Assembly: GCF_964213995.1 (NCBI RefSeq) | Contig: NW_027590151.1 | Location: 1 to 64,000 of the forward strand | Length of the DNA: 64,000 nucleotides | Source: Mustelus asterias | Taxonomy: Eukaryota | Direction of reading: 5' to 3' | Shown: positions 4,821-53,157 of the stretch, one piece after another | Layout of the letters: each line of letters starts with the position of its first letter | Numbering within the stretch: the stretch's first letter is position 1 | The notes under the pieces: model-generated | What the model was told of the DNA's origin: nothing | The model's database searches: none | Seen by the model: only the letters and a program-made list of their open reading frames with translations | Program-made: the position numbers and the translations under genes

Positions 4821-4952
4821 TGAAACTCTGCAACATTGTGAAAGCTGCTTTGTGTCAAAAGGTGTGGAGATGCCGGCGTTGGACTGGGGTGAACACAGTC
4901 AGAAGTTTAACAACACCAGGTTAAAGTCCAACAGGTTTATTTGGTAGCAAAA

Positions 4953-4999
4953 GCCACACAAGCTTTCGGAGCTCTAAGCCCCTTCTTCAGGTGAGTGGG
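4953..4999 (-). ncRNA. Minimal type-I hammerhead ribozyme motif
   Basis: CAC-CUGAAGA-A-GGGGC-UUAGA-GCUCC-GAAA-GC-UU-GUG on the minus strand. Confidence 0.65.
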
Positions 5000-5253
5000 A
5001 ATTCTGTTCACAAACAGAGCTTATAAAGACACAGACTCAATTTACATGAATAATGGTTGGAATGCGAATACTTACAACTAATCAAGTCTTTAAGAAACAA
5101 AACAATGTGAGTGGAGAGAGCCTGTCTTGATGCTCTCTCCACTCACATTGTTTTGTTTCTTAAAGACTTGATTAGTTGTAAGTATTCGCATTCCAACCAT
5201 TATTCATGTAAATTGAGTCTGTGTCTTTATATGCTCTGTTTGTGAACAGAATT

Positions 5254-5300
5254 CCCACTCACCTGAAGAAGGGGCTTAGAGCTCCGAAAGCTTGTGTGGC
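5254..5300 (+). ncRNA. Minimal type-I hammerhead ribozyme motif
   Basis: cccactCAC CTGAAGA A GGGGC ttaga GCTCC GAAA GC TT GTGtgg; stem II 5 bp, palindromic AAGCTT at stem III. Confidence 0.7.
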
Positions 5301-5304
5301 TTTT

Positions 5305-5640
5305 CATAGAAAAAAAATCATAGAAACCCTACAGTGCAGAAAGAGGCCATTCGGCCCATCAAGTCTGCACCGACCACAATCCCACCCAGGCCCTACCCCC
5401 ACATATTTACCCGCTAACCTACACATCCCAGGACTCTAAGGGGCAATTTTTAACCTGGCCAATCAACCTAACCCGCACATCTTTGGACTGTGGGAGGAAA
5501 CCGGAGCACCCGGAGGAAACCCACACAGACACGAGGAGAATGTGCAAACTCCACACAGACAGTGACCCGAGCCGGGAATCGAACCCGGGACCCTGGAGCT
5601 GTGAAGCAGCAGTGCTAACCACTGTGCTACCGTGCCGCCC
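5305..5640 (-). mobile_element. HE1-like tRNA-derived V-SINE, full length
   Basis: Head GGGCGGCACGGTAGCACAGTGGTTAGC..GGTTCGATTCCC, V-domain GGGTTTCCTCCGGGTGCTCCGGTTTCCTCCCAC, CR1-like tail. Confidence 0.9.
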
Positions 5641-5743
5641 AAATTTGCTACCAAATAAACCTGTTGGACTTTAACCTGGTGTTGTTAAACTTCTTATTGT
5701 GTCAAAAGTTCAGGAGAAAACTGGACCTTTCTGTTTGTGGCTT

Positions 5744-5890
5744 TAAACAGATGGAGCCCTGTGGGTGCGGAGCAAACAGATGGAGCCCTGTGGGTGCGGA
5801 GCAAACAGATGGAGCCCTGTGGTGTGGAGCAAACGGAGCCCTGTGGGTGTGGGGGCAAACAGATGGAGCCCTGTGGCTGTGGAGCCTGGT
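5744..5890. repeat. ~30-bp minisatellite, ~5 degenerate copies
   Basis: AAACAGATGGAGCCCTGTGGGTGCGGAGC repeated in tandem. Confidence 0.85.
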
Positions 5891-5999
5891 GTTGTGAGTC
5901 TTCTTGCAGTGTGGAGCAAACAGCTCAACATTTGTCTCTGAGATGGGTTCACTCAGCACAGAAAGCAGGGATTAATTCAGGAAATTATACTATATTCTG

Positions 6000-6550
6000 C
6001 ACTTTTCCAATACCTTTCACTGTATACCAATACATGTGACAATAATAAATTCAATTCAATGTTTGCACTGACCCAGAGAAAAGTTTTGAAACTACAAAAG
6101 GAACAATACAGCTTGGTATGACTGTTGCTCTGTCCAAGACCGCAATAAACTACAAAGGGTTGTGAATGGAGCCCAGTTCATCACGCAAACCTGCCATTGA
6201 CTCTGTCTACACTTCCCACTGCCTCAGAAAAGCAGCCAGCCTAATCAAGGATCCCACACATTCCGGACATATTCTTTTCCACCTTCTTCCATTGGGAAAA
6301 AGATACAAAAGTCTTAGGTCACTTACCAACCGACTCAAGAACAGCTTCTTCCCTGCTGCTGTCAGACTTTGAATGGACCTACCTCGTATTAAGTTGATCT
6401 TTCTCTACACCCTAGCTATGACTGTAACACTGCATTCTGCAGCCTCTCCTTCCCTTCTCTATCTACAGTATGCTCTGTCTGTATAGCGCGCAAGAAACAA
6501 TACCTTTTCACTGTATACGAATACATGTGACAATAATAAATCAAATCAAA
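6000..6550 (+). mobile_element. Rex1/Babar-type LINE 3' end
   Basis: SVYTSHCLRKAASLIKDPTHSGHILFHLLPLGKRYKSL..NRLKNSFFP; tail gacaataataaatcaaatcaaa. Confidence 0.8.
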
Positions 6551-7317
6551 TAATATTCTTGAGCCTTGAGATGGGGAATGTAGACAGAGGGAGGCCAGAC
6601 AGGGAACACCTAAATAATTCTAATAACTTTATTCAACTTTTCTCAATAGTAAACACACTTACAATAAATTAAGGATTTGTAAATGAATCAGGTTCTAAGA
6701 GATAATATTGAAGATAAGATTAGAACCTGTATACAAACATGAATAGACGAATGATCTGAAAGAATAGACAATGCTTGTTCGCAACTCCAAACCACTGGCT
6801 AAAGAACCAAAGACAAAGGCATCACTAATTCTTTCAGAAAGATATGAACCATTCAGGTAGACAGCATGAGAAAAGGAATTGATGATATCACACAGACTCA
6901 CTATTTACTTTTACAAGATGAATTAATGGTTTTGGTGTTTCAGTTTATAAAAACAGGAAATGTTAGCATGTTACCATCGAGTTATCGAGACCTTATTAAA
7001 ACCAAAAGGGTTAAATACACAAAAACTTAGGGTTCTTAACCAGGTCTACTTTCGACCAGACTAACCAGATGAGGAATAATTCGCTCAAAACTCTGTCTGA
7101 TGAATCCTCCTGTGAGTATCCAGTCATCTCATGGTCTTGGTCTGTAATGAGCTATGTAATAGAAATAAAATATTAAATCAAAGTCTCATTGTTTCCTAGT
7201 TTCTGAGCTTGTTTAAAGGGATGCAAATAATTCAGTAAAAACTGGGAGTGTGTTTAGCTTTTCGAAACAACACATTACAACAATTTAAAATTAACCCCAG
7301 GATTTTTGAAAAGCCCT

Positions 7318-7839
7318 CTATTCACACAGACATACACACAGAGCTTGTTGATATATTAGAAATTTAAATGAGCAGGTAAATGGCCTCTCTCCGGTGTGAA
7401 TTCGCTGGTGTTCAGTGAGTTGTTCTGATCCCCTGAACCCGATCCCACAGTGGGAGCACCTGAATGGTCTCTCATCAGTGTGAACCCGCTGATGGCGCAC
7501 CTTATTTGCAGAAATTTTATAGCCCTTCCCACAGTCTTGACATTTAAATGGTCTCTCATCCGTGTGAATTTGCTGGTGTTGCATCAGCCCTGACGATCGA
7601 GTGAATCCCTTCCCACACTGGGAACAAATGAACGGCCTCTCCCCAGTGTGAATTCGCTGGTGTGTTAGCAGCCCTGATGATCGAGTGAATCCCTTTCCAC
7701 ACTCAGGGCAGGTAACTGGCCTCTCCTCAGCGTGACTGCGCTGATGAGTTTCCAGCTCAGATGGGGATCGGAATTCCTCCTCACAGTCCCCACATTTGCA
7801 CGGTTTCTCTCCAGTGTGAACAGTTCTTTTTCCTTCCAT
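7318..7839 (-). pseudogene. C2H2 ZNF, 5 fingers, truncated at the 3' end
   Basis: [13 protein letters not shown] start; finger 6 breaks after FTCS (~7370) into unrelated AT-rich sequence. Confidence 0.75.
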
Positions 7840-8224
7840 GTTCAAAATTCTCCGATATTCAGGCTGCAATAAATTGGGCGATTCCGTCCGATTTTGATGT
7901 GTTTGATTTGTGTTTCATGACTGCAAAGTCTAAAGATTGACATTAAAAAAAGAAAAAAAGGCGTGAGACAGAACTCACAAAAACACAAAGGCAGGTTGTG
8001 AAATTGAGCTGAATGAATCTGGTAACTTGTGGGGCCGGAACTAGAAAAAGTGACTATGGACACTGCTGGTTCATTGTTAAAAACCTAACTGGCTCACTGA
8101 CGTCCTTCAGGGAAGGGAACCTGCTGCCTGGTCTCGTCTACACAAGACTTCGGCCCCTATAAGAACATAAGAAATAGGAGTGAGATTAAACCATGAGGCC
8201 CATAAATACATGCATCTTGCTGCC

Positions 8225-11325: not shown

Positions 11326-11329
11326 CCCA

Positions 11330-15262: not shown

Positions 15263-15439
15263 TGGTGGGAACACACACTAGCAACATTTAAGAGGCATCT
15301 GGATGGATAATGAATAGGGAGGGAATAGAGAGATACAGACCGAGTAAGGGCGGAAGGTTTTTTTTAAGTTTAGTGAGGCCATCATGGTCAGCACAGGCTT
15401 GGAGGGCCGAAGGGCCTGTTCCTGTGCTGTTCTTTGTTC

Positions 15440-15970
15440 TTCCACCTCAGTGACATCGCCCGACTCCCCCAGTCTCAGCTCATCTGGGACCCTCACCCAT
15501 TCCATTGTGACGTCTGGAACCTCCCAGCACTCCTTCATTGCGCATGCGCCAGACCGCACACCGTCCCCAGTAAATATGGCGGCTGTTTGCACGGGCCTCT
15601 CTCGGAGAAAAGCCTGAGCAGCTTCCGCCGCTCCAAACTCCGCATCGGAGCTTCGGCCCACACGGGATGTTTATGAGGCCTCCAAACCTACCCGCCGGCT
15701 CCCTCCCTCATGACCCATCCCACGGTATCTCACCGGCTGATAATTTCCACAACCGCCTCGATCGTGAGTTCTCATCGGCACTGCGCATGTTCTCAGTCAC
15801 AACAGGAGTGTTCTGGTCTAGACCCGCCCCTCGTTCACTCCGATTGGCTGGAGGACCAGCCTCACTGCTCGGCTATCCAGTCCCGCCCTCTCTTTCTATT
15901 GGTCCAGAGCCGCCGTCAATCACTCCCAGGGCATTGTGAGCTGGAGCATGCGCAGTGCCAATGCTAGGCT
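15440..15970. promoter_or_regulatory. Bidirectional CpG-island promoter with symmetric cassette 15777..15959
   Basis: TGCGCATGCGC, AATATGGCGGC (YY1-like), CCAAT/GC boxes; lies between divergent ZNFs 13809(-) and ~16455(+). Confidence 0.7.
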
Positions 15971-16192
15971 CAGGCTGCAAAGCCGCAGGGAGCAAAGCCT
16001 GAGATTGAAATCAATGGGTTGCTGTAAAGCAGGTCAGGGTTACAGCCAACAACAACTTCTATTTATTTAAAATCCTTAACATCAGAAATCATCCCACTGC
16101 ATTTCACAGGAACATCCAGATACATCAGGATATATTAGCACAGATGACCAAAAGATTGGATAATCAAAGAAACCCTGCAGTACAGAAAGAGC

Positions 16193-16451
16193 AAGAAGTT
16201 TAACAACACCAGGTTAAAGTCCAACAGGTTTATTTGGTAGCAAAAGCCACACAAGCTTTCGTAGCCTTAAACTCCTTCTTCAGGTGAGTGGGAATTCTGT
16301 TCACAAACAGGGCACAGAGACACAAACTCAATTTACAGAATAATGGTTGGAATGCGAATACTTACAGCAAATCAAGTCTTTAAGGTACAAACAATGTGAG
16401 TGGAGAGAGCATTAAGACAGGTTAAAGAGATGCGTATTGTCTCCTGTCTGG
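16193..16451 (-). mobile_element. Penelope-like pseudo-LTR fragment with a degenerate hammerhead (16246..16292)
   Basis: Same family as 4862..5121; minus strand CTGAAGAAGGAGTTTAAGGCTACGAAAGCTTGTG. Confidence 0.75.
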
Positions 16452-16454
16452 AGA

Positions 16455-16885
16455 CAATACACATCTGGATTCAATCGATTGATATGGGAAGGCAAAAGTG
16501 TAACCAAAACAGGGAAAGTCCGTGTGGACAATGTGGGGATACCGGGAAGGGATTCTATTATCTCTCTGATCGGGAAATTCATCGATGCTGTCACACTGGT
16601 GTGAGGCCATTCACCTGCCCCCTGTGTGAAAAGGGATTCACTCAATTTTCAAATATGTTGCGACACCAGCAGGTTCACACCAGGGAGAAACCCTTCACCT
16701 GCTCCCAGTGCGGAAAGGGATTCACTCAGTCATCCCACCTGCTGACACATCAGCAAGTTCACACTGGAGAGAGATCGTTCACCTACCCAGTGTGTGAAAA
16801 GAGATTCATCGGCCCTGCTGAGACACCAGCGAGTTCACACTGGGAGAGGCCATTCTTCTTCTTTGTGTGTAAAGGAATTTGCTGA
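16455..16885 (+). pseudogene. Degenerate C2H2 ZNF (2 intact fingers)
   Basis: CPLCEKGFTQFSNMLRH and [17 protein letters not shown]; flanking fingers broken. Confidence 0.7.
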
Positions 16886-18080: not shown

Positions 18081-18087
18081 GGGTGGA

Positions 18088-26153: not shown

Positions 26154-28115
26154 GTTCAAAATCCGATGAAATTCAGGTTATGATAAATTAGGTGACCCCG
26201 TCAGATTTTGATGTGATGTTTGATTTCTGTTTCCTGACTGCAAATCCTCCCCTTCTAAAACCCTGTGAAATTGATTTAAAACAGAAAAAAGGGCGTGAGA
26301 GAGAACCCACAAGAACACAAAGACAGGTTGTGAAATTGAGCTGAATGAATCTGGTAATTTGTGGGGCCGGCACTAGGAAAACGTGACCATGGAAACTGCT
26401 GGATTGTCACAAAAATCAGACAGGTTCAGTAATATCCTTCAGGGAAGAGAACCTGCCGCCTGTTCTGTGCCTTCACAAGACTCTGGACACAATGTGAAGA
26501 GAGACAGAGAGTGATATATATACACATAATATATACATACACACGAGAGAGATTGCCCCAATACAAACTTCACTCCCTAACCACGCTATCCTTCTCCCGA
26601 GCAACTATCTGAAGTGAAATTAATTTCACAACATTACTGCCATCCTTTACCCAAAACTGAGCTTCCGACCCTGTACCTCTAGACTTAACCACCCCATCTC
26701 TGAAATCTCCTCCATCACACAACCCTGTGAGATATCTGTACTGATCTAATTGTGGCATCATGAGTGTTCCACATTTCAATCACACCAACACTGTGAAAAA
26801 GTGTGTGTAACTGGAAAACACAGATCAACGTCCACAACCAACACCCGCCCCGATACAAGTCATTCTTAATTGGTCAATCTCTGCTTCAAGGCTCGTTTCT
26901 GGGACAAACGCCTGCAACAAAATAATAGCAAAATACTGTGGTTGCTGAAAATCTGAAATAAAAAGAGCAAATACTGAAAATACTTAACTTGTTAGCTAGT
27001 AACTGTGGCAAGAGAACAGAGTTAAAATATCTGAGTGTGCATAATCAATATGGGTATACAATCAGGATCAAGCGTAGGCCATTCAGCCCCTCAATCCTGC
27101 TCCACCATTTAATAAGATCATGGCTAATCTGATAGTAACTTCAAATCTTCAATTCCAGGGAATTATGGTGCAGATTTGATGTTTAATATCAGCCAATGAG
27201 CAAAAGAGAAATGATCTCTAGTGCAGGAAAAAGAATTCCTGACCATTGGGAGATAAAGATGGTACATCAGAAGCACATAGCTGAGGGATGGGAAAAGGTG
27301 AAAGCTTCATTTAGACACAGTTGCAAGAAAATAACAGTAAAATAGCAAACACGGTTAAAATAAATCTACTACTGGAAAAATAGAGAGTTAAACAATGACA
27401 GAGGTAATCAGAGAGGGCAGAGGTGAAACAGAGCAATGGATGGATATGGATTCAGATCCAAAGGAAAGGAGTCAGACCAGCCGGAGAGATAGAACAGAGC
27501 ACAAATAACAGAGCATGGCACTAAAAGCACTGGATTGTAGATGAATGCTCAATAATACTCACTTCTGGAACTATTTGAAAACTTCCTGCTGCAGCTGGAA
27601 AGATATCGCAAGCATTGGAATCAGAGAAATCACAGACTTCAAATCTTCCAACTCCCTGTAAAAGGAGATTACAAGAGTCATGTGTCAACTGTGGTTAGAA
27701 AATAAGAGATAAACATTTTTCTTGGTTTGCGATTGCTCCCCTTTTAACCCCCTGTAAAAGGGTGCAGGATTATGTAAAATGGGATATGCTTACATTGGAA
27801 GTAATTCAGACAAGGTTCACTGAGCTGATTCCAGGCACAATGTTTTTTTTTAAATGAGGAAACATTGGGCAGGGTGTACCTATACTCATTAGATTTTAGA
27901 TAAATGTTGAAACTGAAGCATATAAGATTCTGTGGGTGCTTGACAGGATAAGTGCTGCAAGGATGTTTCCCCTCAGAGGGAAATGTGGAACTGCAGAGAC
28001 AGTTTAAAAGTAAGGGTTGAAGACAGAGATGAGGAGAAATCACTTCGCTCAGAGGTCCAGTAGCCCGTGCAATTCTCTCCTTCAGTGAGCAATGGAAGCT
28101 GGCTCATTGGGTATA

Positions 28116-28183
28116 CACAGTAAGCGTTTTAACAACACCAGGTTACACTGTGTTTACCCCAGTCCAACGCTGGCATCTCCACA
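28116..28183. mobile_element. Tiny Penelope-like insertion
   Basis: Terminal sequences of the 4862 family; 12-bp TSD tcattgggtata at 28104..28115 and 28184..28195. Confidence 0.75.
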
Positions 28184-28379
28184 TCATTGGGTATATTCAG
28201 GGCTGTGTTATGCACCATTTTTACCGACAAGGGAGTGGTGGGTTGGGGAGGTTGGGGCTGGAGGAACATTGAGTGAAGGCAATGATCAGATGAAGCACTG
28301 ACTGGCAGAGCAGCCTCGATGGGTGGAATGGCCTGACACATGCGCACTGATTCACATTCCCACCTACAGAAGGGCGGCA

Positions 28380-29100
28380 GTCAGCCCAGGCCCAACACGA
28401 CCAGCTGCGGCTCCATTTGGTACAAACGGGGGGGACCGGGATGTTCTTTCCCGGGATTTGAACAACATGTTTCCGAAGCCTCTCCAACCGCCACATTCAC
28501 CGCGCGCCGCTCTTCACCTCCTATTGACCCGGGATCCGAGTTCAAACCGGCTGTCGCCATTACCCGCACTGCGCATGCCCGAAACTCCGCCCCTCATTCC
28601 GTCTGATTGGTTGGAGGACCAGCCACTCCCGTTTGGTCCTCCAGGCCCGCCTCTCATTCACTGATTGGTTGGAGGACCAGCCACTCCCGTTTGGTCCTCC
28701 AGCCCCGCCCCTCATTCACTCTGATTGGTCCGGAGCTGCCGTCAATCTGTTCCCGGGCCCAGCGAGCTGGAGCATGCGCAGTGCCGATTCCGGATGGGGT
28801 CAGTTTGGTTGGAAACTGGCAGCGGGTCAGATTCAGAAACGAGGTGAGCGGGAAACACTGGACCCGGCGGGTAGTGTGGGAGGCTAAAGAAATACAAGGT
28901 GTAGGCCCAGAACCGCCAACGAAAAACCATCGGCCTTCCATTTGCCACACTGGAGCCGTCGTTTTTTTTGTTCCGCGGTTGAAGGCTCGGGTTAGCGCCG
29001 CCATCTTTATAGGGGGCAACATTCTGCAATGCGCATGCGCCATCTTGATCATGGCCCATGTACTGCAGTGCGCAGGCGCGGCCATTGTGGCTGGACTCTG
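28380..29100. promoter_or_regulatory. Bidirectional CpG-island promoter with cassette 28567..28785 and a YY1/NRF1 cluster
   Basis: Two tandem ~58-bp GC-box/CCAAT/inverted-repeat units flanked by inverted GCACTGCGCATGC; GCCGCCATCTT and TGCGCATGCGC at 28995-29085; lies between ZNFs 26153(-) and 31598(+). Confidence 0.8.
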
Positions 29101-29135
29101 GGGAGGATTCCCAGTCTCTGACCTGCTCTTGTTTT

Positions 29136-29381
29136 AAGAAGTCTCACACCTGGTTAAAGTCCAACAGGTTTATTTGGTAGCAAAAGCCACTCGCTTTCGG
29201 AGCTCTGCTCCTTCATCAGGTGAGTGCGAGTTCTGTTCACAAACAGGGCACAAAGACACAAACTCAATTTACAAGATAATGGTTGGAATGCGAGTCTTTT
29301 CAGGTAATCAAGTCTTAAAGGTACAGACAATGTGAGTGGAGAGAGGGTTAAGCACAAGTTAAAGAGATGTGTATTGTCTCT
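29136..29381 (-). mobile_element. Penelope-like pseudo-LTR with hammerhead core (29186..29226)
   Basis: Minus strand CAC CTGATGA A GGAGC AGA GCTCC GAAA GC GA GTG (cleavage triplet altered). Confidence 0.78.
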
Positions 29382-29857
29382 TGTCGACACAGGCTCTTGT
29401 AGGTACAGTATTCATATGTCGTCCAGTTCAGTTTTTGGTCAATGGTAATCCCCAGGATGTTGATAGTGGGGGAATTCATTGATGGTAATGCCATTTAATA
29501 TCATGGAGATGAGGGTTAGATTCCCTCTTGTTGGGGATGGCATTGGCTGACATTTGTGTGTCGTGAAGGTTACTTGTCACTTATTAACCCAAACCTGAAC
29601 ATTATCCAGGTCTTGCTGCTTTTGGACATGGACTGCTTCAATATCTGGGGAGTCATGAACATTGCTGAACTTTGTATAATCACCAGTGAACATCCCTTCT
29701 CCCCCCCGCCCCTTTTCTGAGCTTATGGCGGAGGGAAGTTATTGAAGAAGTCACTGGAGTTGGTTGGACCAAGGACAGGACTCTGAGGAACTCCTGAAGT
29801 GATGCCTTGGGCCTGAAATGATTGATCTCCAACAATCACAACCATCTATACTTGTGA

Positions 29858-30019
29858 TCTGGAGATGCCAGCATTGGACTGGGGTGGGCCCAGTAAGAAG
29901 TCTCACAACACCAGGTTAAAGTCCAACAGGTTTATTTAGAATCATGAACTTTCGGAGTGCTTCTCCGTCACCTGATGAAAGCTCGTGATTCCAAATAAAC
30001 CTGTTGGACTGTAACCTGA
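29858..30019. mobile_element. Penelope-like fold-back, older subfamily
   Basis: ggttaaagtccaacaggtttattt..aaataaacctgttggact inverted arms; the plus-strand hammerhead lacks stem II (CTGATGAAAGCTCGTG). Confidence 0.7.
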
Positions 30020-31597
30020 TCTCTATTTGTGTGAGGTGTGACTGAACTAGTGCAGAGGTTTTGCCCTGATTCCCATTAACCTCAATTTAGATAGGATTCC
30101 TCGTGTTGACCTCTTTTATCCATGTTTAGATCAAGGCTGTAGTGAGTTTAGGAGCTGAGTGGCTCTGGTGGAACCCAAACTGAGCTTCAGGGAGCAAATT
30201 ATTATTTTGTAAGTACCATTTGATTGCACTGTCTAGAATCCTTTCCATCACTTTGCTGATGATCAAAATCCTGTAACTCTCTTCCTAACAGCACTGTGTA
30301 GCTGCAGCACATGGACTGCAGCAGTTCAAGAAGGCAGCTCACCACTCCTTTCTTGAGGGCAATTAGCAATAAATGTCGGCTTAATCAGCAACGCCCAGAT
30401 CCCACAGAGGAACTTTTAAAAATTAGGAAAGGTAAAACAATGTTATGGTTTTGTGAGGGGAATTGAATACATAACAAAAAGAACTGATGTGGCTGCACTT
30501 GGCCAGGCTGGATTTGTCCTGCTTTCTGTGGACGGCACAAACCTGCGCAATTTTTGACATTATTAGGTAGGTGTCAATACTCCAACAGCACATCAGCAGC
30601 TTGCTGGAAAATCATTAAGGAAGTGAAACCTTGTCCATTTTGGAGTTGTCTGACATCACTCTGGGTCTTTGGATTACTCGTCCAGTGACAAAACCACAAT
30701 GCCACCATCTCCCCATAAGGTTATTGGTCTCTATGGGGAGATAACAATAGAGATATCTCCAGTGTTGTTTTATATACACATTAGATATAATAATCATGTT
30801 TCAGTTATAGAATATATTTATTATTTCCATTCTTGTAATCTAGTACTGTAACTATGTTACATCGTTCCAGTTTGTGACAGTACAGATCAGAAGGAATCTG
30901 GTTTAAAATTTGAGTCCCTGTCAACTCTCTGCATTCCAATCCACTCAGTCCCATTCCGTCCTCTTTATCCCCTTACTGTGTATGTCATTTTCCTTTGAGT
31001 GTCCACCCAATATCATTTTGAAACTTTATCTTCTCTTTAACCATCCTCAGAGACATTCCAGATTTTGACCACTCGCTGTCAAGATAAAATTATTCCTCCC
31101 ATTCCCCCTTCCCACCTCTCTCTAATTAAGAAATGCAGTATTTATACCACATATTTTTAGTCCAGTTATATGACCACAGAAACTAGAAATGTCTGTGCTG
31201 AATGTTAATCCTGTACTGACAGAGACAACTTTTGTAAATTCCTTTTACAGAATATCAGAAGGTGAGGATTTGCAGACAGAATTCTCAAACCAAATGTCAG
31301 GTGAAGAATGGCCAGAATTGCTCGATCGTCAGGACCTGAATATCATTGGCCTTTGAATCGAGAAGGAGAATGTTTCTCTGTTCTGTCTGCTTCAGAAAAT
31401 TTTAAACGTCAGTGTGACTTGAAAAGCACGAAACACACATGCAAATGAGAGCGTTCCAGTGCACTGACTGAGGAAAGAGCTTTGACCAGTTAGATAATCT
31501 AAAGAAACATTACAGGAGAGAAAGACCATATCTGTGCTGAAGCTGTGGGCACCTCAGCTGATCAATAAACCTGGAGAAACACAAGGACGCCCGCACC

Positions 31598-32692
31598 ATG
31601 GAGAAACCGTGGAAATGCGGGGACTGTGGGAAAGGATTCAGATCCCCATCCGAGCTGGAAATTCATCGACGCAGTCACACCGGAGAGAGACCGTTCACCT
31701 GCTCTAAGTGTGGGAAGGGATTCACTAATTCATCTGATCTGCACACACACCAGCGAGTTCACACAGGAGAGAGGCCCTTCACCTGCTCTGTGTGTGGGAA
31801 AGGATTCACTCGCTCATCCAACCTGTTAGAACACCAGAAAATTCACACTGGAAACAAGCCATTCACCTGTTCTGTTTGTGGAAAGGGATTCTCGTGGTCC
31901 TCCCACCTCCTGGTACACCAGCGAGTTCACACTGGGGAGAGGCCGTTCACCTGCTCTGTGTGTGGGAAGGGATTCACTCGGTCCTGTAAACTGCAGATGC
32001 ACCAGCGATTTCATGCTAGTGAGAGGCCGTTCACCTGTTCTGAGTGTGGGAAGGGATTCATTTATTCATCTACCCTGCGGACACACCAGCGAGTTCACAC
32101 TGGGGAGAGGCCATTCACCTGCTCTGAATGTGGGAAGGGATTCACTCGGTCAGCCCACCTACAGACACACCAGCGAATTCACACTGGGGAGAGGCCATTC
32201 CCCTGCTCCGATTGTGGGAAGGGATTTACTCGGTTTTCCATCTTGAAAACTCACCAGCGAGTTCACAGTAGGGAGAAGCTATTCACCTGCTGTCAATGTG
32301 GAGAGGAATTCTCTCGGTTATCCATCCTGCAGACACACCAGCGAATTCACACAGGTGAGAAACCGTTCACATGTTCTGACTGTGGGAAGAGATTCTTTCA
32401 TTCATCCGCCCTGCTGAGACATCAGCGAGTTCACACCAAGGAGAGGCCATTCCCCTGTTCCGAGTGTGGGAAAGCATTCACGCAGTTATCCAATCTGCAA
32501 ACACACCAACAAATTCACACAGGGGAGAGACCGTTCACCTGCTCTGTGTGTGGAAAGGGGTTCACTCGATTATCCCACCTGCGGACACACCAGCGAATCC
32601 ACACTGGGGAGAGGCCGTTCCCCTGCTCTGAATGTGGGAAGGGATTCACTCGGTTATCCATCCTTAAGACACATCAGCGAGTTCACAAGTGA
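31598..32692 (+). CDS. Tandem C2H2 zinc-finger protein, 13 fingers
   Basis: 364-aa ORF (13 x 28 aa), gcaccATGg start; acceptor ttttacag|a at 31251. Confidence 0.92.
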
Positions 32693-32733
32693 TTGCAGGG
32701 GGTGGATTGTGCTGTTATTGCTGCTGTTAATCA

Positions 32734-32837
32734 CAGTAAGAAGTCTCACAACACCAGGTTAAAGTTTGGACTTTAAGCTGGTGTTGTGAGACTTCTCACT
32801 GTGCTTACCCCAGTCCAATGCCGGCATCTCCACATCA
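32734..32837. mobile_element. Penelope-like hairpin in a ZNF 3'UTR
   Basis: Inverted arms cagtaagaagtctcacaacaccag / ctggtgttgtgagacttctcactg; 9-bp TSD tgttaatca at 32725..32733 and 32838..32846. Confidence 0.8.
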
Positions 32838-33651
32838 TGTTAATCATAACCAGGACTCAACCATGTTCATTCTGACAGTTGGTGAAATGGGAGGGTTGGA
32901 GGGTTTCTTTCTGCTGGAGCCTCCCAACCTTCCTAAAGAGCAGTAACCTGAGCTGGGCTCAGTGTTCTGTTGTGGCCTCACCAGAGCTTTAGAAACTATC
33001 AGAATAACCTCCCTGCTTTTGTTACAATTCCTCAATTTCTGAAGCCCAAGATCCCAGATTTTCCAAACAGGAACATCAAACAGTTTTGCTAGAAAATAAA
33101 ATGCATTTTAACAACATTCTTAAAATGGCAGAAGAAGATTTTGACCAGTGAAGGAACGAGTTGTTGACACAAACAGAAGCTATTTTGACCTTGCTCTCTC
33201 CAAAAGAGAATCCAGAATGTTTGAGTCTGGGAAATGAAATTAAAAATGAAGCTGCAGCTACAACAGAGCAAGAAGAAGACATTTCAATGTGGAATTGAGT
33301 GGAATATTCTCTCTGGATTTAAACAATGGAGGAACTGCAAACGTGAAAGAAAATAAATTTCAAAATGTGAACTCTGAACAGACTGTTTTCAAAATAGAAC
33401 TTGAAAATTCACAAATGAACAGCAATGAAGACTCTCCTTTTGCAGGAGAAACTTTGGATTATAATTATTGGAAGAAGAAAAGTTTCAGAAAAGACTGCAA
33501 ACCGTAATTTCCATCTTCAGTGGACTGAATTCCTGGACATGGAACCCAGCAGTGTGCTGAGTATAAAGAAACTCTTGGGGTGAGGTAAAAAAATGGAACT
33601 AGATTTATATCATAAATCTTTATTGAGTGTAGTATTCAATTTGTAGTGTTA

Positions 33652-34660
33652 GAACATAGAAAGCCACAGCACAAATAGGCCCTTCGGCCCACAAGTTGCG
33701 CTGATCATATCCCTACCTCTAGGCCTATCTATAGCCCTCAATCCCATTAAATCCCATGTACTCATCCAGAAGTCTCTTAAAAGACCCCAACGAGTTTGCC
33801 TCCACCACCACCGACGTCAGCCGATTCCACTCACCCACCACCCTCTGAGTGAAAAACTTACCCCTGACATCTCCTCTGTACCTACCCCCCAGCACCTTAA
33901 ACCTGTGTCCTCTCGTAGCAACCATTTCAGCCCTTGGAAATAGCCTCTGAGAGTCTACCCTATCCAGACCTCTCAACATCTTGTAAACCTCTATCAGGTC
34001 ACCTCTCATCCTTCGTCTCTCCAGGGAGAAGAGACCAAGCTCCCTCAACCTATCCTCATAAGGCATGCCCCCCAATCCAGGCAACATCCTTGTAAATCTC
34101 CTCTGCACCCTTTCAATGGCTTCAACATCTTTCCTGTAATGAGGTGACCAGAAGTGCGCGCAGTACTCCAAGTGGGGTCTAACCAGGGTCCTATAAAGCT
34201 GCAGCATTATCTCCCGACTCCTAAACTCAATCCCTCGATTAATGAAGGCTAGTACGCCGTACGCCTTCTTGACCGCATCCTCCACCTGCGAGGCCGATTT
34301 AAGAGTCCTATGGACCCGGACCCCAAGGTCCTTCTGATCCTCTACACTGCTAAGAATGGTACCCTTCATATTATACTGCTGCTTCATCCCATTGGATCTG
34401 CCAAAATGGATCACTACACACTTATCCGGGTTGAAGTCCATCTGCCACTTCTCCGCCCAGTCTTGCATTCTATCTATGTCTCGCTGCAACTTCTGACATC
34501 CCTCCAAACTATCCACAACACCACCTACCTTGGTGTCGTCAGCAAACTTACCAACCCATCCCTCCACTTCCTCATCCAGGTCATTTATGAAAATGACAAA
34601 CAGCAAGGGTCCCAGAACAGATCCCTGGGGCACTCCACTGGTCACTGACCTCCATGCAGA
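33652..34660 (-). mobile_element. Young 5'-truncated CR1 LINE with an uninterrupted RT C-terminal ORF (33725..34645)
   Basis: SGVPQGSVLGPLLFVIFINDLD..KFADDTK..; 306 aa with no stops. Confidence 0.95.
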
Positions 34661-35089
34661 GGTCTTTTTAAATTTTATTTAAACATACGGTAAAGTTTGT
34701 TTTTGTTTAACAATGTGGAATCTTGTGATGTAATTCTTTCAGTTAATCACTGGGTGTTCGAATTTCTCTGCAAACGTTAACAGTCCTGACCAGGATCGCA
34801 AACATTCACACAAAGTGTTTCAAAACAAATCAAAGAAAAAGATGGTTTTTCTTCTTCAGTCCAAACGTTACACATGAAGAAACCCTCTTCTGGTATCTCC
34901 AATAATTTGTTGCTTCGAGCAATTCTTTTCATGGAACAATCAGATAATTGATGACTGAAAATGGAACTAATTGTATCCCTTTAAAGCAGGAGGGCGATCG
35001 CCCGGCACAGAGGGGAATTAGGGATTTCTCCCATAGACCAATTGACAGGGATTCTACCCTCCAACCACCTGAAGTGAATTCTTTACATG

Positions 35090-35614
35090 AATCATCCGTG
35101 CCAGTGCAGTTATCAACTTGCAGTTTGGCTGATCAGAAAATGCTTTGTTGCTGATTTTCCTTGTGTTAGGAAGTGACAGTGCCAAGGCCAGATCTTGTTT
35201 CCTCCTTGATCGGGATGTAACCCGTGTCCACATCGCCACTTCATTCTTCCACTGGTTGTATGGTTCAGACTCCGAGAGCATCAGCAGGTAATCAGACCCT
35301 GACAATTCCCACTGCCTTTCAGTCATTTCTCACAAAAGCTGCTGGGATTGGAAGCTTCCGTCTGAAATAGACTTTCTTTTAGTTTCCAATCTTCACCATT
35401 AGACAAGCATTTTCTGTTACCATGTTATAATCCTGACAGCCTTGGGGCGGAGTCAATCTTTATTTGGTTTAGATTTGTTCACAGAATCAAACATTACAGG
35501 TTCAACTCTGACTCCAGGTTATATTAGTGAGTCCCACTTTTTACCTGCTCATTATAACTATCTAATCAGTGCCCTCCATCTGAATAAACTTCACCTCTAT
35601 TGATATAATTAACA
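35090..35614 (-). mobile_element. Second GalEa-like Copia relic (LTR 35423..35614, PBS, gag start)
   Basis: TGTTA..TAACA ends; PBS-like TGGTAACAGAA; YNQWKNEVAMWTRVTS..KQDLALALSLP. Confidence 0.7.
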
Positions 35615-36924
35615 GCCACAGTCAGAGCATCCAAAAGATCACTAATGGGTGTGTCTGCCACGGTGTCTCAGCAGCTTGGGTGAACAAGTGAATCCTTTCC
35701 CACACACTGAGCAGGTGAATGGTCTCAGTTTGGAAACTGGGGGAAAATAAAATTTCAGGCAGAAGCTTCCAATCTGGTAGGTTTTATGAGAAATCGCTGA
35801 GAGTGAGTGGGAATTATCAGGGTCTCTCCCCAGTGTGAATTCCCTGATGTTTCAGTAGGTCAGATGATGTTCTAAACCTCTTTGCACAGTGAGAGCGCCT
35901 GAACGGGGTCTCCTCAGTGTGAATGCGCTGGTCGACCCTCAGGTCGGCTCAGGTTTTAAAGCAGCTCCCACAGTCAGAGCATTGAACAGGTTTCTTATTG
36001 GGGGAGGTGCCTCAGTATTCCAGCAGACTGGATGATTGACTGAGTCACTTCCCACACACACATCAGATGAATGGCCTTTCCCCAGTGTGTAATCGTTTGT
36101 GTCTCAGCAGACTAGATAATTGAGTGAATCCCTTCCCACACTCGGAGCAGATGAATGGCCTCGGCCCAGTGTGAATGCGTTGGTTTGTCAGCAGGAGGGA
36201 TGAGTGAGTGAATCCCTTCCACGCTCTGAGCAGGGGAACAGTCCCTCACCCGTGTGAAATCGCTGGTGGTTCTGCAGGGTAGATGACTGAGCGAATCCCT
36301 TTCCACACGCACAACAGGTGAATGGTCTCTCCCCATTGTGAACCCGCTGGTGTGTCAGCAGGGCAGACGAATCGCTGAATTTCTTCCCACACTCAGAGCA
36401 GGTGAATGGCCTCTCCCTGATGTGAAGTCGCTGGTGATTCCTCAGGGTGGATGAATCACGAAATCCCCTTCCAAACTCAGAGCAGGTGAACAGTGTCTCC
36501 ACAGTGTGGCTGCATCGAAGGGTTTCCAGCTTCGAGGGACAATTGAATCCCTTCCCACAGTCCCTACATTTCCATGGTCTGAGTGACTTTGTACATCTCC
36601 AGGTTCAGATGAAGATTTGACCCCACAGATAACACATACATGGTCTCTCTCCTCACTGTGAATCCTTCAATCTTTTCCAGGCTGTGTAACTGGTTAAAGC
36701 TCTTTCCACAGTCAGTTCACTGGAATACTCTCACTCGAGTGTCTGTGTCTCAGTGATTTTCCAGTCACACTGATGTTTAAACAGTTTGAAGGAACAGACA
36801 AACATTTTCCATTCTAGTTTCAAATGCCGATGGTATTCAGATCCTGAATAATTGGGTGACTCTGTCAGATCCTAACGTCATGTTTGTTGAGATTTGTGTC
36901 TGTAAATTCTCCCCTTCTAATAGC
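35615..36924 (-). pseudogene. Degenerate C2H2 ZNF exon
   Basis: Finger repeats with frameshifts (ORF 36188..36502 and others); acceptor at ~36924. Confidence 0.82.
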
Positions 36925-37615
36925 CTGTGAAAGAAATTCACAAAAATCATTGCTGTCAGTACAGGATAAAAACTCAGAACAGACAATTCTAGTTTCTGTG
37001 GAACATTCTTTCCTCTCATTCTTGAAAATTTGTAAATCTCCATCTCAAACACTCTCCCTCCATTCTCACTTTGCTAGACCTGAAATAGACATTGTCCTGA
37101 GGATGCTGATTCATCCTAATCGACAGATCTGTGCTGACTGTTCCATGTACAGGACACATATTCCTGAAATCTTCACACAGGCTTGTGTCTAAGCATATCA
37201 AAAATTTGCATATTTAGTGAAGTAAAAATGTAAGCAATATTCAGAACTCTATTACATGATTAGAGATACAGATGGGTGCGGAAGAACTTGAGTTGGGGAG
37301 CAAGCAATCATGTTCTGGAACTCACTGACGATGAGAGTGGTGGAAGTGGAGACGACCAGTGATTTCAAAATAAAATTGGTCGGGCACTTGAAGGAATTAA
37401 ACGTACTGGGGAACAGGGATATCGAGGAAAAATGGCACTGAGTGGATTCCCCGACAGAGACTTGGCACGGAGTCAAGTTGCTGAATTAATTTATCTTGTG
37501 CTCTGATGACTCTTTGACTGGAAAATATACAGAGTAGTTACAATACTATTCTGGAATTAAACAACATCAACTGTAATACAAATCCATAAATAATATACCT
37601 AATATGCACCATATA

Positions 37616-37815
37616 GTAAGTAGTCTCACAACACGAGGTTAAAGTCCAACAGGTTTATTTGGAATCACAAGCTTTCAGAGCGCTGCCCCTTCATCAGGTG
37701 AGAAGGAGCAGCGCTCTGAAAGCTCGTGATTCCAAATAAACCTGTTGGACTTTAACCAGGTGTTGTGAGACTTCTTACTGTGCCCACCCCAGTCCAACAC
37801 CGGCATCTCCACATC
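37616..37815. mobile_element. Penelope-like fold-back with a hammerhead motif on minus (37665..37702)
   Basis: 14-bp TSD atatgcaccatata at 37602..37615 and 37816..37829; CAC CTGATGA A GGGGC AGC GCTCT GAAA GC TT GTG. Confidence 0.8.
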
Positions 37816-38183
37816 ATATGCACCATATAACAACACCAGACATATCAATGTTGTTACGATCCTCATGGTCACCTTATAATAAACAAATTCCCACAAATCA
37901 CAATAGAATAATCTGAAAGACAATGTTTCATTTTTTTAAAAATGTTACTTTAAAAATTAATCTAAAATTAACATCACTTATTTCATGCATTAAGAAACAG
38001 TATTTGAATAGACAAGATAAATTACACTTTAAAAAGCTCAGACAATAAAAACAGGTTCCACAAAATCACAAACATTTCCCCCTCAGTATATTTGGCTCTA
38101 ATTCCAGTTCCAGAGAATTTCTCTGTCTCTGTATTTCCCAGGGGGAGAAAGAAAGTGTTTTCCTCACAGATGTTGTCCAGAGG

Positions 38184-38559
38184 ATGAAGTTTGAGTCTGT
38201 GGTGAAGTTTGAGTCTGTGTGTGAAGTTTGAGTCTGTGTGTGAAGTTTGAGTCTGTGGTGAAGTTTGAGTCTGTGTGTGAAGTTGGAGTCTGTGGTGAAG
38301 TTTGAGTCTGTGTGTGAAGTTGGAGTCTGTGTGTGAAGTTTGAGTCTGTGTGTGAAGTTTGAGTCTGTGTGTGAAGTTTGAGTCTGTGGTGAAGTTTGAG
38401 TCTGTGGTGAAGTTTGAGTCTGTGTGTGAAGTTTGAGTCTGTGGTGAAGTTGGAGTCTGTGGTGAAGTTGGAGTCTGTGTGTGAAGTTTGAGTCTGTGGT
38501 GAAGTTTGAGTCTGTGTGTGAAGTTTGAGTCTGTGGTGAAGTTTGAGTCTGTGGTGAAG
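38184..38559. repeat. 18/19-bp minisatellite, ~20 copies
   Basis: TGAAGTT(T/G)GAGTCTGTGG and TGAAGTT(T/G)GAGTCTGTGTG units interspersed. Confidence 0.95.
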
Positions 38560-38639
38560 CTACAAACAGAAGCTGTTCTGTTTCAAATGAAACTGCGGGA
38601 CTTGGAAGAAAATGATGGGAAGAGATTTTGCAAAGTCCC

Positions 38640-39060
38640 CTCCCCCACTCCCTCAGCTGGCAGACCAGCGCGCAGGCGCGGAGAGCGCTGCTGAGCCGAG
38701 CTGTCCGGAGCAGGCGCAGTGCGGCTGCCGCCAGCGGCCGCTCTCGATCTCTTTTTGGAGCAGCGGCCGGAGAGAGAGGGGGGAGGGGGAGATCACCGAG
38801 CGGCTTCTCGCTCTGGCCGGAGCCGCCAGCCGGTTGCCGGGAAACCTTGGCTCGAGGAGATGGCAGGGGGCGGGGGAATCAATGAGAGGGGGCGGGGCTC
38901 CCATGTCTGCGCGCCCGGGCCTGCGCACTGGAAATCCAGGACGTCACATCGGTACAGGCTTATTCCTCTTGCCTAATTCAGGCTAGGTTCCATTGTGACG
39001 TCACAACGCGGAAGTTGGCCAACGAGGTTCAGAGTGAAACTCCCGCTTCTGGACAACATC
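38640..39060. promoter_or_regulatory. Bidirectional CpG-island promoter
   Basis: GCGCAGGCGC (NRF1-like), two GGGGCGGGG, CRE palindrome TGTGACGTCACA at ~38994, CGGAAGT (ETS); lies between ZNF 36924(-) and 40311(+). Confidence 0.75.
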
Positions 39061-47992: not shown

Positions 47993-47994
47993 TG

Positions 47995-49662: not shown

Positions 49663-50643
49663 TCACTTGTGAATTTGCTGGTGTGTCAGCAGGTTAGAAG
49701 ATTGAGTGAATCCCTTCCCACACATGGAGCAGGTGAATGGTCTCTCCACAGTGTGAGTGCGCTGGTGTTTCAATAGATGAGATGAACAAGTAAATCTTTT
49801 CTCACACTCGGAGCAGGTGAATGGCCTCTCTCCGCTGTGAACTCGCCGGTGTGTCAGCAGTGCGGCTGATCGAGTGAATCCTTTCTCACACTCGGAGCAG
49901 GTGAACAGCCTCTCTCCAGTGTGAGTGCGTCGATGTCTCAGCAGATTATCACTGTTTTTAAAGCTCTCCTCACAGTCAGGACATTTAAAAGCTCTTGCAT
50001 CAGAGTGAGTGCGCTGGTGTCTCAACAGGTTGGATGAATTAATGAACCCCTTCCCACCCATGGAGCAGGTGAACGGCCTCTCCCCAGTGTGAGTGCGCTG
50101 GTGTACAGTGAAGTCAGATGATTTCCTGAACCCAGTCCCGCAGTGAGAGCACCTGAATGGCCTCTGGTCAGTGTGAACACGTTGATGGGACATCAGGTCC
50201 CCAGAACTTTTATAGCCCTTCCCGCAGTCTGGGCATTTAAAAGGTAAGAAGTTTAACAACACCAGGTTAAAGTCCAACAGGTTTATTTGGTAGCAAAAGC
50301 CACACAAGCTTTCGAGGCTCTGAGCCCCTTCTTCAGGGCTCAGAGCCTCGAAAGCTTGTGTGGCTTTTGCTACCAAATAAACCTGTTGGACTTTAACCTG
50401 GTGTTGTTAAACTTCTTACTGTGTTTACCCCAGTCCAACGCCGGCATCTCCACATCATTTAAAAGGTCTCAGGTCAGTGTGAACTCGCTGGTGTTGCAGC
50501 AGGTTGGATGACTCTCTGAATCCCTTGCCACACATGGAGCAGGTGAATGGCCTCTCCCCAGTGTGAGTGCGCTGATGGATTTCCAGCTGGGACAGCCATT
50601 TGAATCCCTTCCCACAATCCTCACATTTCCACGGTTTCTCCAT
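49663..50643 (-). pseudogene. C2H2 ZNF (~9 fingers) disrupted by a Penelope-like insertion
   Basis: ORFs 50455..50724 and 49663..50376 are in the same frame, split at RPFK|CPDC; acceptor at ~50970. Confidence 0.88.
50246..50455. mobile_element. Penelope-like perfect fold-back insertion
   Basis: 84-bp perfect arms 50244..50327 / 50336..50419 with an 8-nt loop; 12-bp TSD catttaaaaggt at 50234..50245 and 50456..50467. Confidence 0.9.
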
Positions 50644-51669
50644 GGTGCCGATGTGCCTCTCCAGGTTGATGATCAGTTGAAAGCTCATCCACACACAGAC
50701 AACACGTGTACAGTTTCTCCCCAATGTGAATGGTGTGATGTTTTTTTCAGGCTGTGTAACTGGTTAAAGGTCTTTCCAGTCAGTTCACTGGAACACCTTC
50801 ACTCGGGTGTGTGTGTCTCGGTGCTTTCCCAATCACACTGATGTTTGAAATCTTTTCCCACAGACAGAACAGAAATCCTTTCTCCTTCCACATTCATATC
50901 CCGATTCCTCAAATAGCTCCGTCAGATCTTGACGTGATGTTAGGTTTGAGTTTCCTCTCCTTCCAATATCCTGGAAAAGGAGTTTACAAATGTCATCACG
51001 GTAAATCCAGGATAGAAATTCAGAACAGACAATTCCATTTTCTGTGGAACATTTTTGTTCCCCATCCCACACAATCTCCCTGTGCAGAATCCGGTGAAGT
51101 GTCTTTCCTTCACTCCCAGTTTTCCCTCCCCCATTTCTCTGGCTGTGTTCAGATCTCCAGCTGCTGTTTGCAGAATAAGAATAAAATCAATCATTTTCTC
51201 TCCTGGTCACTGCTCCCTGATGCCCCGCCAACCCAATGCCCCTTCACTAACACGGCCACACATGTACCCTGTTGGTTGGACAAGACTCGCCAGCTTCCTC
51301 CCTCAAGTGGCACCTGGTCACCTGAGTACCTTGGGCATGACACCAAAAGAGCCCCACCTTCCCGATCTGCCCTGACTTCCTATTTCATTGGTAGTCTCTT
51401 GGGTTTGAGGATGACTTGCCTGATCTGTTTGTTAAATCCATCCATCTCCCTTGATTCCATAATCCTTAACACTCTCATCTCACAACCTTCTCACAATCTC
51501 AGTTTTTAAATTCTCTGTTGACTGAATCTGACCAGAATTCCAGATTTCTATTTTCCGTAAAGTGATTCCTGACATTGCTCCTGAACAGCCCAGTCTCAGT
51601 TAAGCAAATAAATATCACTGATTTGTATATTTAAATGGTGACAATTATTTTACTCTGAACTTTAAAAAA

Positions 51670-52200
51670 ACGGCACAGTGGCAACACGGCAGCACAGTGG
51701 TTAGCACTGCTGCCTCATGTGGAGTTTGTCCGTTCTCCCCTTGTTGGTGTCGTGCGCCAGTTTCCTCCCACAGTCTGAAAGACGTGCTGGTTAGGTGCAT
51801 TGACCCGAACAGGTGCCGGAGTGTGGCGACTCGGGGGATTTCACAGTAACTTCATTGCAGTGTTAATGTAAGCCTTACTTGTGATTAATAAATAAATTTT
51901 AACTTTAAAAACAAAATAACAGCAGTGATTAGCACTGCTGCCTCACAGCGCCAGGGACCCGGATTCAATTCCCAGCTTGGGTCACTGTTTGTGCAGAGTC
52001 TGCACATTCTTCACATGGTCCCACAGTCCAAAGATGTGCAGGCTAGGTGGATTGGCCATGCTAAATTGACCTACTTAGTACCCTCAGGGGGATTAACAGG
52101 GTAAATAGGTGAGGTTGCGGTGATAGGGCCTGCGTGGGATTGTTGTTCGGTGCAGGCTCGATGGGCCAAATGGCCTCCTCTGCACTGTAGGAATTCTATA
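51670..52200 (+). mobile_element. Two tandem V-SINEs (alternative-tail type, then HE1 type)
   Basis: Two tRNA-like heads at ~51685 and ~51922; the tails differ. Confidence 0.75.
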
Positions 52201-52529
52201 ATAATCGCAGTGAAAAACTGGAGAAGCTGGAAATGGGAACCAAAAACAGAAAGTTCTGGAAATGGGAACTGAAAACAGGAAGTTGTGGAAATCCTCAGCA
52301 GGTTTTGGCAGCTTCTGTGGAGAGAAACAGAGTTAACATTTGCAATGCCAGAGGCTTGTTGTTGATGAGCTGAGTGTTTGCAGCATTGTGGTGAGCTTTG
52401 AGAAACATACTGAATGTGAGTTTCTAGTTCTCACACAGATCTGGCTGTCAATCTGATTTCACACCTTCCTCTGAACACTTTCCAAACTCAGCTCCAGCTC
52501 ATTGTCCATCCCTTCACTAAACACCCGGA

Positions 52530-52850
52530 TGGACAATCACCACCTCAAGATGGCGGCGCCCGCCGGTTGCCCGGGTAACCCGGGCCCAAGCAACAGGGAG
52601 CAGCCCCGCCCACTCCCCCTTCCCTTACCAAGATGGCCGTCCCCACGCTCCGCTCCCTGAACAAAAGACACGCCTTCCTCTCCTAAGATGGTGGCCGGTT
52701 GCCCGGGTCAATCCGGGACCCGGATGATCCTCTTCCTATTGGTCCGGAGCTGCCCGTCAATCACTCCCCGGCCCATTGTGAGCTGGAGCATGCGCGGTGT
52801 GGCTGTGAATCTGGACTCAGGCGGATGAGTGCAGGAGGTTCCAAACCTCC
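52530..52850. promoter_or_regulatory. Bidirectional CpG-island promoter with YY1 motifs and the cassette terminus
   Basis: Three AAGATGG(C/T) motifs, GTTGCCCGGGTAAC (RFX-like palindrome), GC box, ATTGGTCCGGAGCTGCCCGTCAATC..GAGCATGCGC; lies between 50970(-) and 54169(+). Confidence 0.75.
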
Positions 52851-52910
52851 CAGTAAGACCCATTGGTTTTATTGTCAGTCTGCAGACAGGAGCTGGAGAA
52901 CTGAACCCAG

Positions 52911-53032
52911 TAAGAAGTTTAACAACACCAGGTTAAAGTCCAACAGGTTTATTTGGTAGCAAAAGCCACACAAGCTTTCGGAGCTCCAAGCCCCTTCTTC
53001 AGGTGAGTGGGAATTCTGTTCACAAACAGGGC
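52911..53032 (-). mobile_element. Penelope-like fragment with an intact hammerhead motif (52965..53011)
   Basis: Minus strand CAC CTGAAGA A GGGGC TTGGA GCTCC GAAA GC TT GTG; TSD aactgaa(c/a)ccag at 52899..52910 and 53033..53044. Confidence 0.82.
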
Positions 53033-53157
53033 AACTGAAACCAGACAGAGAAGGAGAGAGAAAACTGGGAGTGGAGGAAAGAAATAGTGGAGAAGGGTTT
53101 GGATTTCAGCCCAAGGAGGAGGGAGAGTGTGTGGGAAGGGGATTTACAGATTTAGGA

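Follow-up and report, generated by a model that had tools for sequence, protein, structure and literature searches.

Recurrent insertions of a Neptune-type Penelope-like element at a symmetric target and near CpG islands in zinc-finger gene clusters of the shark Mustelus asterias

The integration of Penelope-like elements (PLEs) is poorly understood, with one full protein having been studied in vitro. The closest described systems are the endonuclease-bearing Neptune/Nematis elements (PMC8557442), the metazoan PLEs with minimal hammerhead ribozymes (Cervera and De la Pena 2014, PMC4209133) and Poseidon of Anolis, PAc (Frangieh et al. 2024, PMC11167929). The PLE target biases named in PMC8557442 are microsatellites (for Naiad, Chlamys and, by citation, Neptune), 28S rDNA (for PLE-X) and 'moderate preferences' for Penelope. 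For PAc, both strands are cut and extended, a dimer is predicted and the ribozyme is dispensable for insertion in vitro (PMC11167929). A search of titles and abstract starts, with subscription papers and Repbase entries lying outside it, returned no published palindromic target, recurrent site or promoter-flank bias for any PLE. Here we analyse nine PLE insertions in the window, which is the first 64,000 nucleotides of contig NW_027590151.1 (C119; assembly GCF_964213995.1) in the 3.68-Gb genome of Mustelus asterias and contains a dense cluster of C2H2 zinc-finger (ZNF) genes, together with related copies elsewhere in the genome. An initial annotation had proposed that these hammerhead-carrying insertions cluster at ZNF promoters and that selection removes the sense copies. 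We find that the element recurs at a symmetric target, CTG-N16-CAG, that it is enriched at the flanks of CpG islands, including some outside the ZNF genes, and that the apparent antisense bias is mostly due to one recurrent site.

The nine window insertions, all of which are present where the initial annotation had placed them, are 5'-truncated 3' fragments of an abundant Neptune-type PLE. One 32-mer of the element has 162,358 exact matches genome-wide (44 per Mb), with six in the window versus 2.8 expected. A long C119 copy that ends at 440722 is frameshifted and split by a short interspersed element (SINE); a profile search of it finds RVT_1 (E 2.1e-9) followed by GIY-YIG (E 2.1e-4; 21.9 bits, just below the curated cut-off of 22.6), and in several copies a CX4CxxC linker, CHSNLCKTC, stands before GIY-YIG. 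The criterion for Neptune/Nematis is a CX2-5CxxC linker preceding GIY-YIG, and Penelope/Poseidon elements are without a zinc-finger linker (PMC8557442), so that by this linker-motif rule, rather than by a reverse transcriptase (RT) tree, the shark element would be placed in the Neptune/Nematis clade. A partial tandem (pseudo-long terminal repeat, pLTR) is present, with a 363-nt unit abutting the end of the open reading frame (ORF) at C119:322388 and in contigs C71 and C88. Upstream of an intact ZNF ORF in the C88 zone, a near full-length copy (120849-123456, L203) is inserted at a distance of 79 bp from a CpG island.

PLE copies were surveyed in the whole of C119 and in 200-kb stretches of C87, C71 and C88, which gives five ZNF zones with 1.235 Mb in total. 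Duplication is heavy in these zones: window 28100-37800 has a segmental duplicate at C119 925800-940200, and blocks of C119 recur in the C71 and C88 stretches, so that statistics on ZNF clusters need de-duplication. De-duplication by hand reduced 116 copies to 83 events, among which a few duplicates may remain, and removal of the window events leaves a held-out set of 74. Two inverted arms are present in 40 of the 83 events, and in 29 of these 40 a tail end is paired with an internal end about 35 nt away, which matches the two RT starts of the anole element, where two internal starts bound the tail (PMC11167929). Matches between the target-site duplications (TSDs) are 10-16 bp long. The window insertions, named below by the start positions given in brackets, are the following.

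4862-5702 (4862), both strands: two-arm inverted insertion, minus arm 4862-5122 with the tail, plus arm 5119-5317 and 5643-5702; 12-bp TSD
16190-16466 (16193), minus strand: single long arm with core and weak stem II, 240 bp from the CpG island 15431-15950
28109-28187 (28116), both strands: tiny inverted insertion without hammerhead, 12-bp TSD, 124 bp from a CpG island
29135-29380 (29136), minus strand: single arm lying 185 bp downstream of the CpG island 28311-28950, the cleavage site of its core being altered (GAAAGCGA)
29855-30020 (29858), both strands: inverted insertion, plus-arm core without stem II
32728-32838 (32734), both strands: inverted insertion without hammerhead, about 40 bp past a ZNF stop
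37615-37817 (37616), both strands: inverted insertion whose minus-strand core is predicted to fall within a long hairpin
50244-50458 (50246), both strands: inverted insertion within the coding exon of a ZNF, with a core that is predicted to lie in a long hairpin
52911-53033 (52911), minus strand: young single arm with intact core at a recurrent ZNF-leader site, 12-bp TSD with one mismatch

The plus arm of 4862 is split by a nested SINE, the piece 5643-5702 belonging to the same insertion, which is located upstream of the ZNF 3096-3806 promoter (minus strand). Copy 28116 is duplicated at C119:925831, copy 29136 lies within the leader (the interval from island to ZNF) of the intact 13-finger ZNF 31562-32692, and copy 37616 is present six times in the zones read, through segmental duplication.

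It is noted that this kind of PLE and its ribozyme motif are already known. Like the Neptune/Nematis elements of PMC8557442, the shark element has RT followed by GIY-YIG, a CX4CxxC linker, heavy 5' truncation, an inverted copy, a one-sided tail of 30-40 bp and a hammerhead in the pLTR; unlike these elements as described there, it shows a bipartite palindromic target consensus and a promoter-flank bias. An inverted-plus-tail layout like that of the two-arm events is known in a rotifer (PMC3846280). While PAc prefers AT-rich DNA with an ATT motif (PMC11167929), the shark targets show CTG/CAG half-sites around an A/T-leaning core.

Among 40 distinct rebuilt targets, CTG-N16-CAG is centred on the TSD in 11, versus 0.15 expected, and a relaxed form in 15, with N16 being a clear peak among spacers of 10-22; the window copies 4862, 28116, 50246 and 52911 fit it. 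A first alignment of 17 target sites had given no clear matrix. A matrix trained without the recurrent leader site of 52911 (the hotspot) places this site in the top 0.03% of the background, and the two best matrix sites in the empty leader 3900-4620 are the two recurrent sites, the second of which was in the training set. The two sites, and a further one in a CR1 long interspersed element (LINE), are as follows.

4175-4196, minus strand: site in the ZNF 3096-3806 leader (CTG-N16-CAG) that is paralogous to the recurrent one and empty
4107-4128, minus strand: paralogue of the second leader site (ATG-N16-CAG), empty here and occupied by two different insertions at other places in C119 (135529, 276247)
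C119 195787, 301618, 348965 and C88 (L207): recurrent PLE site in CR1

At the CR1 site, a near-perfect consensus match, six distinct copies show four PLE insertions that differ in structure, as found with a pattern written after the filled copies had been seen. Moreover, one SINE position has 156 PLE-filled copies versus four at a control position, and among the first 100 of the 156 filled copies listed, 48 lie outside the ZNF contigs. Of 100 listed junctions, 54 end in CA, and in 6 of 16 such cases the CA is inside the TSD. By rough arithmetic, 27% of insertions on a motif occurring at 3.6e-4 per base would correspond to an approximately 760-fold preference, which with 63-113 PLE copies per Mb would fill 5-9% of perfect sites, and a fourfold flank effect would bring this to the 30% that are filled at the hotspot.

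At the hotspot, 113 of 379 exact paralogous leader sites run straight into a PLE at the base of 52911, as found with a genome-wide search pattern that fixes one polarity. Comparison of 36 of the filled sites (the first 30 of the listing and six in C119) gives seven structures, with 12, 10, 4, 5, 3, 1 and 1 copies, and two further junctions at the same site occur in C119, one with the tail arm first. Four of the six classes compared are nearer to dispersed PLE copies than to other hotspot classes, one being within 1% of them; copy 52911 itself differs by 1% from dispersed copies. The hotspot has been filled by at least seven structurally distinct insertions and by duplication. It thus provides a natural replicate, with many independent insertions at one base that were differently amplified, which would allow a test of the arm features a host tolerates. 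In the ZNF zones, where no polarity filter was applied, five hotspot events are internal-first and one is tail-first, and the long arm is antisense in all six. No link between filling and host integrity is seen among ten filled sites (four with intact hosts, five with broken ones, one without host) and 17 empty ones (nine intact, eight broken). An account of the hotspot as a mimic of the PLE tail was rejected, because just 7 of 23,368 young junctions outside the ZNF leaders follow TGAACCCAG, a sequence that occurs roughly 53,000 times in the genome (estimated from eight counts) and after which the junction rate is about that of a generic CAG. The antisense 52911 copy presents a splice-donor-like junction, CCA/GTAAGA, at 52907-52915 and a consensus donor, CAG/GTGAGT, at 53000-53008 within the reverse complement of the hammerhead core, their use as donors being a prediction. 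Presumed RNA contigs of related organisms cover an empty leader and gave no interpretable splice joint.

Target-specific elements such as R2, Utopia and Dada likewise insert again and again at a single base of a multicopy gene family. Unlike these, the shark PLE is dispersed genome-wide, and the ZNF site is one place where a loose consensus is well matched rather than a dedicated niche: 113 filled ZNF sites stand against more than 100,000 dispersed copies, and 11 of the 40 targets match the consensus exactly, which differs from the strict specificity of R2.

The clustering at promoters described in the initial annotation is also recovered in part, although it is not specific to ZNF genes. Five of the nine window copies are no more than 300 bp away from a CpG-island-like stretch (by a sliding-window definition made for this analysis), versus 1.24 expected (p=0.0055). 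ZNF promoters of this kind in the window are listed here.

52481-52850, plus strand: CpG-island-like ZNF promoter, 52 bp from copy 52911
4491-4880, 15431-15950, 28311-28950, 38541-39060: other CpG-island-like ZNF promoters

The window overstates the effect, which is about 4-fold there and 1.5-1.8-fold in the held-out data. Within 500 bp of an island there are 35 of the 83 events versus 18.7 expected, 30 of 74 versus 16.8 after removal of the window events (p=0.002), and 26 of 69 versus 15.4 after removal of the hotspot as well (p=0.003). At 300 bp, held-out C119 alone is not significant (11 of 50 versus 8.7, p=0.24). The event density is 247 per Mb at 1-300 bp and 213 per Mb at 301-500 bp from islands, and 47-55 per Mb beyond 1 kb. 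The same comparison without de-duplication gives 1.1- and 1.0-fold for two SINE queries and 0.6-fold for CR1. Near islands the density of consensus target sites rises by a factor of just 1.3-1.5 or so, which leaves the flank bias to be explained by something else, probably accessibility. A notion that the arms point toward the island was dropped, the de-duplicated events within 500 bp being 10 toward, 5 away and 8 both.

Non-ZNF promoters were sampled as 30 loci on large contigs that carry a YY1 motif, which we take to mark promoters and their direction of transcription; 14 of them passed the island test. These 14 contain eight exact PLE 32-mers versus 1.9 expected, with 5 of the 14 loci carrying a PLE (p ~0.02), and all 30 contain 12 versus 4.0 expected. 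A combined NRF1/YY1 pattern gave no loci, and a ZNF143 motif search gave six, none passing the island test. Around 14 islands in the non-ZNF part of C119, 0 of 25 PLE events lie within 500 bp versus 1.1 expected, a comparison of low power. The promoter-flank bias is therefore genuine, though weaker than the window alone would imply, and not restricted to ZNF genes, as non-ZNF promoters are enriched too. It is also observed that at the YY1-motif island loci (L211-L240) the PLE lies upstream of the motif in eight and downstream in one (p=0.04), and that one non-ZNF CpG promoter, L239 in contig C19, has about four PLE insertions within 1.2 kb upstream.

Based on these data, we consider it probable that the target preference of the PLE, together with its bias to CpG-island flanks, explains the recurrence, a symmetric site being hit repeatedly and then multiplied by ZNF duplication. 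Starting from the observed structure, consensus, recurrence and enrichment, the pathway would be as follows. A putative dimeric GIY-YIG nuclease would recognise CTG-N16-CAG in the open chromatin of promoter flanks, bind the two half-sites and make a staggered cut about 12 bp apart. Reverse transcription would then be primed from each 3' end, at one or the other of the two starts beside the tail and in many cases with microhomology of a few bases, and the two primed arms would become the inverted arms inside the TSD. In the ZNF leader a match to this target is conserved in about 400 paralogues; it would be hit repeatedly and then multiplied by gene duplication. The symmetric target, the 12-bp stagger and the two RT starts would allow a direct biochemical test of such a dimer and twin-priming model, and may find use in RT-nuclease engineering.

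Several points weigh against this account. The 40 rebuilt targets are those with a clean TSD, about 30 of them from the ZNF zones, and 25 of the 40 fit neither the consensus nor its relaxed form. The non-ZNF promoter sample is small, built on motifs taken as promoter markers and without a regional control, and a bias in retention could mimic promoter-flank targeting. The six antisense-only events versus none sense-only at the hotspot are not predicted by a symmetric cut, and local priming asymmetry, transcription or selection may each underlie the antisense long arms. Moreover, gene conversion is visible among the filled paralogues, classes a and g being mosaics 0.08 apart, so that some classes could descend from one event. 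Taken further, the whole hotspot could go back to one or two ancestral insertions that were diversified by palindrome deletion and gene conversion and spread by ZNF duplication, with the promoter excess being pseudoreplication. The existence of such mosaics, the duplication of whole blocks between contigs and the collapse of 116 copies to 83 events would be expected from it. We nevertheless regard it as highly doubtful, because the classes comprise different subfamilies with different right junctions, one has reversed polarity, one is 1% from dispersed young copies, and the island excess survives the removal of duplicates and hotspot, as given above (26/69 vs 15.4, p=0.003).

We now turn to the ribozyme. 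Judged by sequence, the PLE hammerheads are the genuine published minimal type I motif (PMC4209133), and the initial annotation was right in assigning both element and ribozyme, as RT, GIY-YIG and a covarying motif are all found. Like the metazoan motifs of PMC4209133, they have a CUGANGA core, a single bulged base ahead of stem II, the pair G10.1-C11.1, a palindromic AGCU replacing helix III, a short helix I, many sequence families and opposite-strand pairs 100-700 bp apart; the motif is identical and the shark copy number is higher, with 23,787 genome-wide matches to one pattern versus about 4,000 copies in coelacanth and about 9,000 in Xenopus. The minimal type I features, namely the core, the bulge, stems I and II and a palindromic 15.2-16.2, are all present. 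In 61 distinct motifs, retrieved with a pattern that itself required the core, the bulge is A in 61 of 61 and stems I and II covary (stem I pair 1: C-G 46, U-A 10; stem II pair 3: A-U 28, G-U 25, G-C 5). AATAAA stands directly 3' of the core on the PLE sense strand. An Rfam search returned no hammerhead family, with hairpin-type miRNA matches below threshold as its only output, and when five single cores were folded, the joint formation of stems I and II in no case exceeded that of shuffled sequences (z -0.2 to -1.3). Among 36 arms, the 5' ends showed no evident accumulation at the ribozyme cleavage site, with 2-3 candidates judged by eye. The core of 29136, reading GAAAGCGA, is without the base that is U16.1 in the hammerhead core numbering, and this ribozyme is probably dead in either orientation. 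The same cleavage-site variant (window 29186-29200; L123, L125, L129) is common to several independent insertions, which suggests that a source with a dead ribozyme still transposed. Single minimal hammerheads show no cleavage as monomers (PMC4209133), and the anole PLE ribozyme required protein for activity (PMC11167929). Host transcripts probably carry the hammerhead as a passenger.

As to orientation in the window, the cores of 16193, 29136 and 52911 are antisense to a plus-strand unit, 28116 and 32734 are without ribozyme and the sense arm of 29858 is without stem II, all in agreement with the initial annotation. It has to be corrected in that six of the nine copies, 4862, 28116, 29858, 32734, 37616 and 50246, are inverted two-arm insertions, 4862 having an intact core on each arm and thus on both strands. 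Likewise, of the supposedly intact genes, the host of 29136 is intact and that of 16193 is a 2-finger ZNF remnant. The sense cores of 37616 and 50246 are present as described; both are predicted within hairpins of about 85-90 bp (-156 and -176 kcal/mol by folding), and that of 50246 lies in a coding exon that either orientation would break.

When 127 leaders were scanned for the strand of the hammerhead span, 33 PLE events were found, 11 antisense-only, 4 sense-only, 4 with both and 14 with none (p=0.12). Five of the 11 sit at the hotspot, without which the ratio is 6 versus 4 (p=0.75), and antisense to sense is 5:1 in intact hosts and 6:3 in broken ones (Fisher p=0.60). One hotspot site therefore supplies most of the apparent antisense bias, and the claimed selection against sense self-cleaving copies is not demonstrated. 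An intact sense core, though paired with an inverted arm, occurs in C88 within the leader that precedes an uninterrupted 9-finger ORF. Among 15 events in intact hosts there is no lone intact sense core, against four antisense. This last count speaks for the proposal that the PLE lands near promoters and that selection then removes sense copies because their hammerhead would cut the pre-mRNA, and so do the excess of 13 versus 4 when 16190 and C119:104828, both missed by the leader rule, are added, and the lack of strand bias of SINE and CR1 in the same leaders. In addition, the two hotspot classes with a sense arm spanning the hammerhead are singletons, whereas those without one, of which one has a sense polyA signal, have 3-12 copies. 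Given the leader counts, the likeness of intact and broken hosts, the C88 core, the failure of the five folded cores and the published inactivity of single or protein-free motifs (PMC4209133, PMC11167929), we consider this proposal unlikely. Quite unlikely, too, is its combination with the target data, by which a dimeric nuclease with a bipartite palindromic target and a preference for promoter flanks filled about 30% of the leaders of one ZNF subfamily at a single base and the host then purged insertions whose sense arm carries a working hammerhead. It is noted that tandem retrozymes, which are tandem dimers unlike the single minimal motifs, are reported to be excluded from frog introns and exons (2026 preprint, 10.64898/2026.07.22.740005).

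Since the sense strand also carries AATAAA, even a true strand bias need not involve the ribozyme. The antisense excess might come from generic selection against sense AATAAA, or arise because antisense copies providing splice donors are tolerated, an explanation that we hold to be somewhat improbable. It would account for the 11 antisense versus 4 sense AATAAA-carrying arms in the leaders of intact hosts, for the two donors offered by antisense 52911, and for the upstream position of the PLE at the non-ZNF islands (8 versus 1, with direction by the YY1 rule). Nevertheless, a hotspot class with a sense AATAAA has five copies, and the exon structure of the leaders, on which the splice-donor version depends, is hypothetical.

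Two further features were seen in C119. A short-unit tandem array at window 38190-38560 adjoins a CpG island, and in the non-ZNF part of the contig, near 619700, the translation contains a segment that we take to be immunoglobulin/T-cell-receptor V-like.

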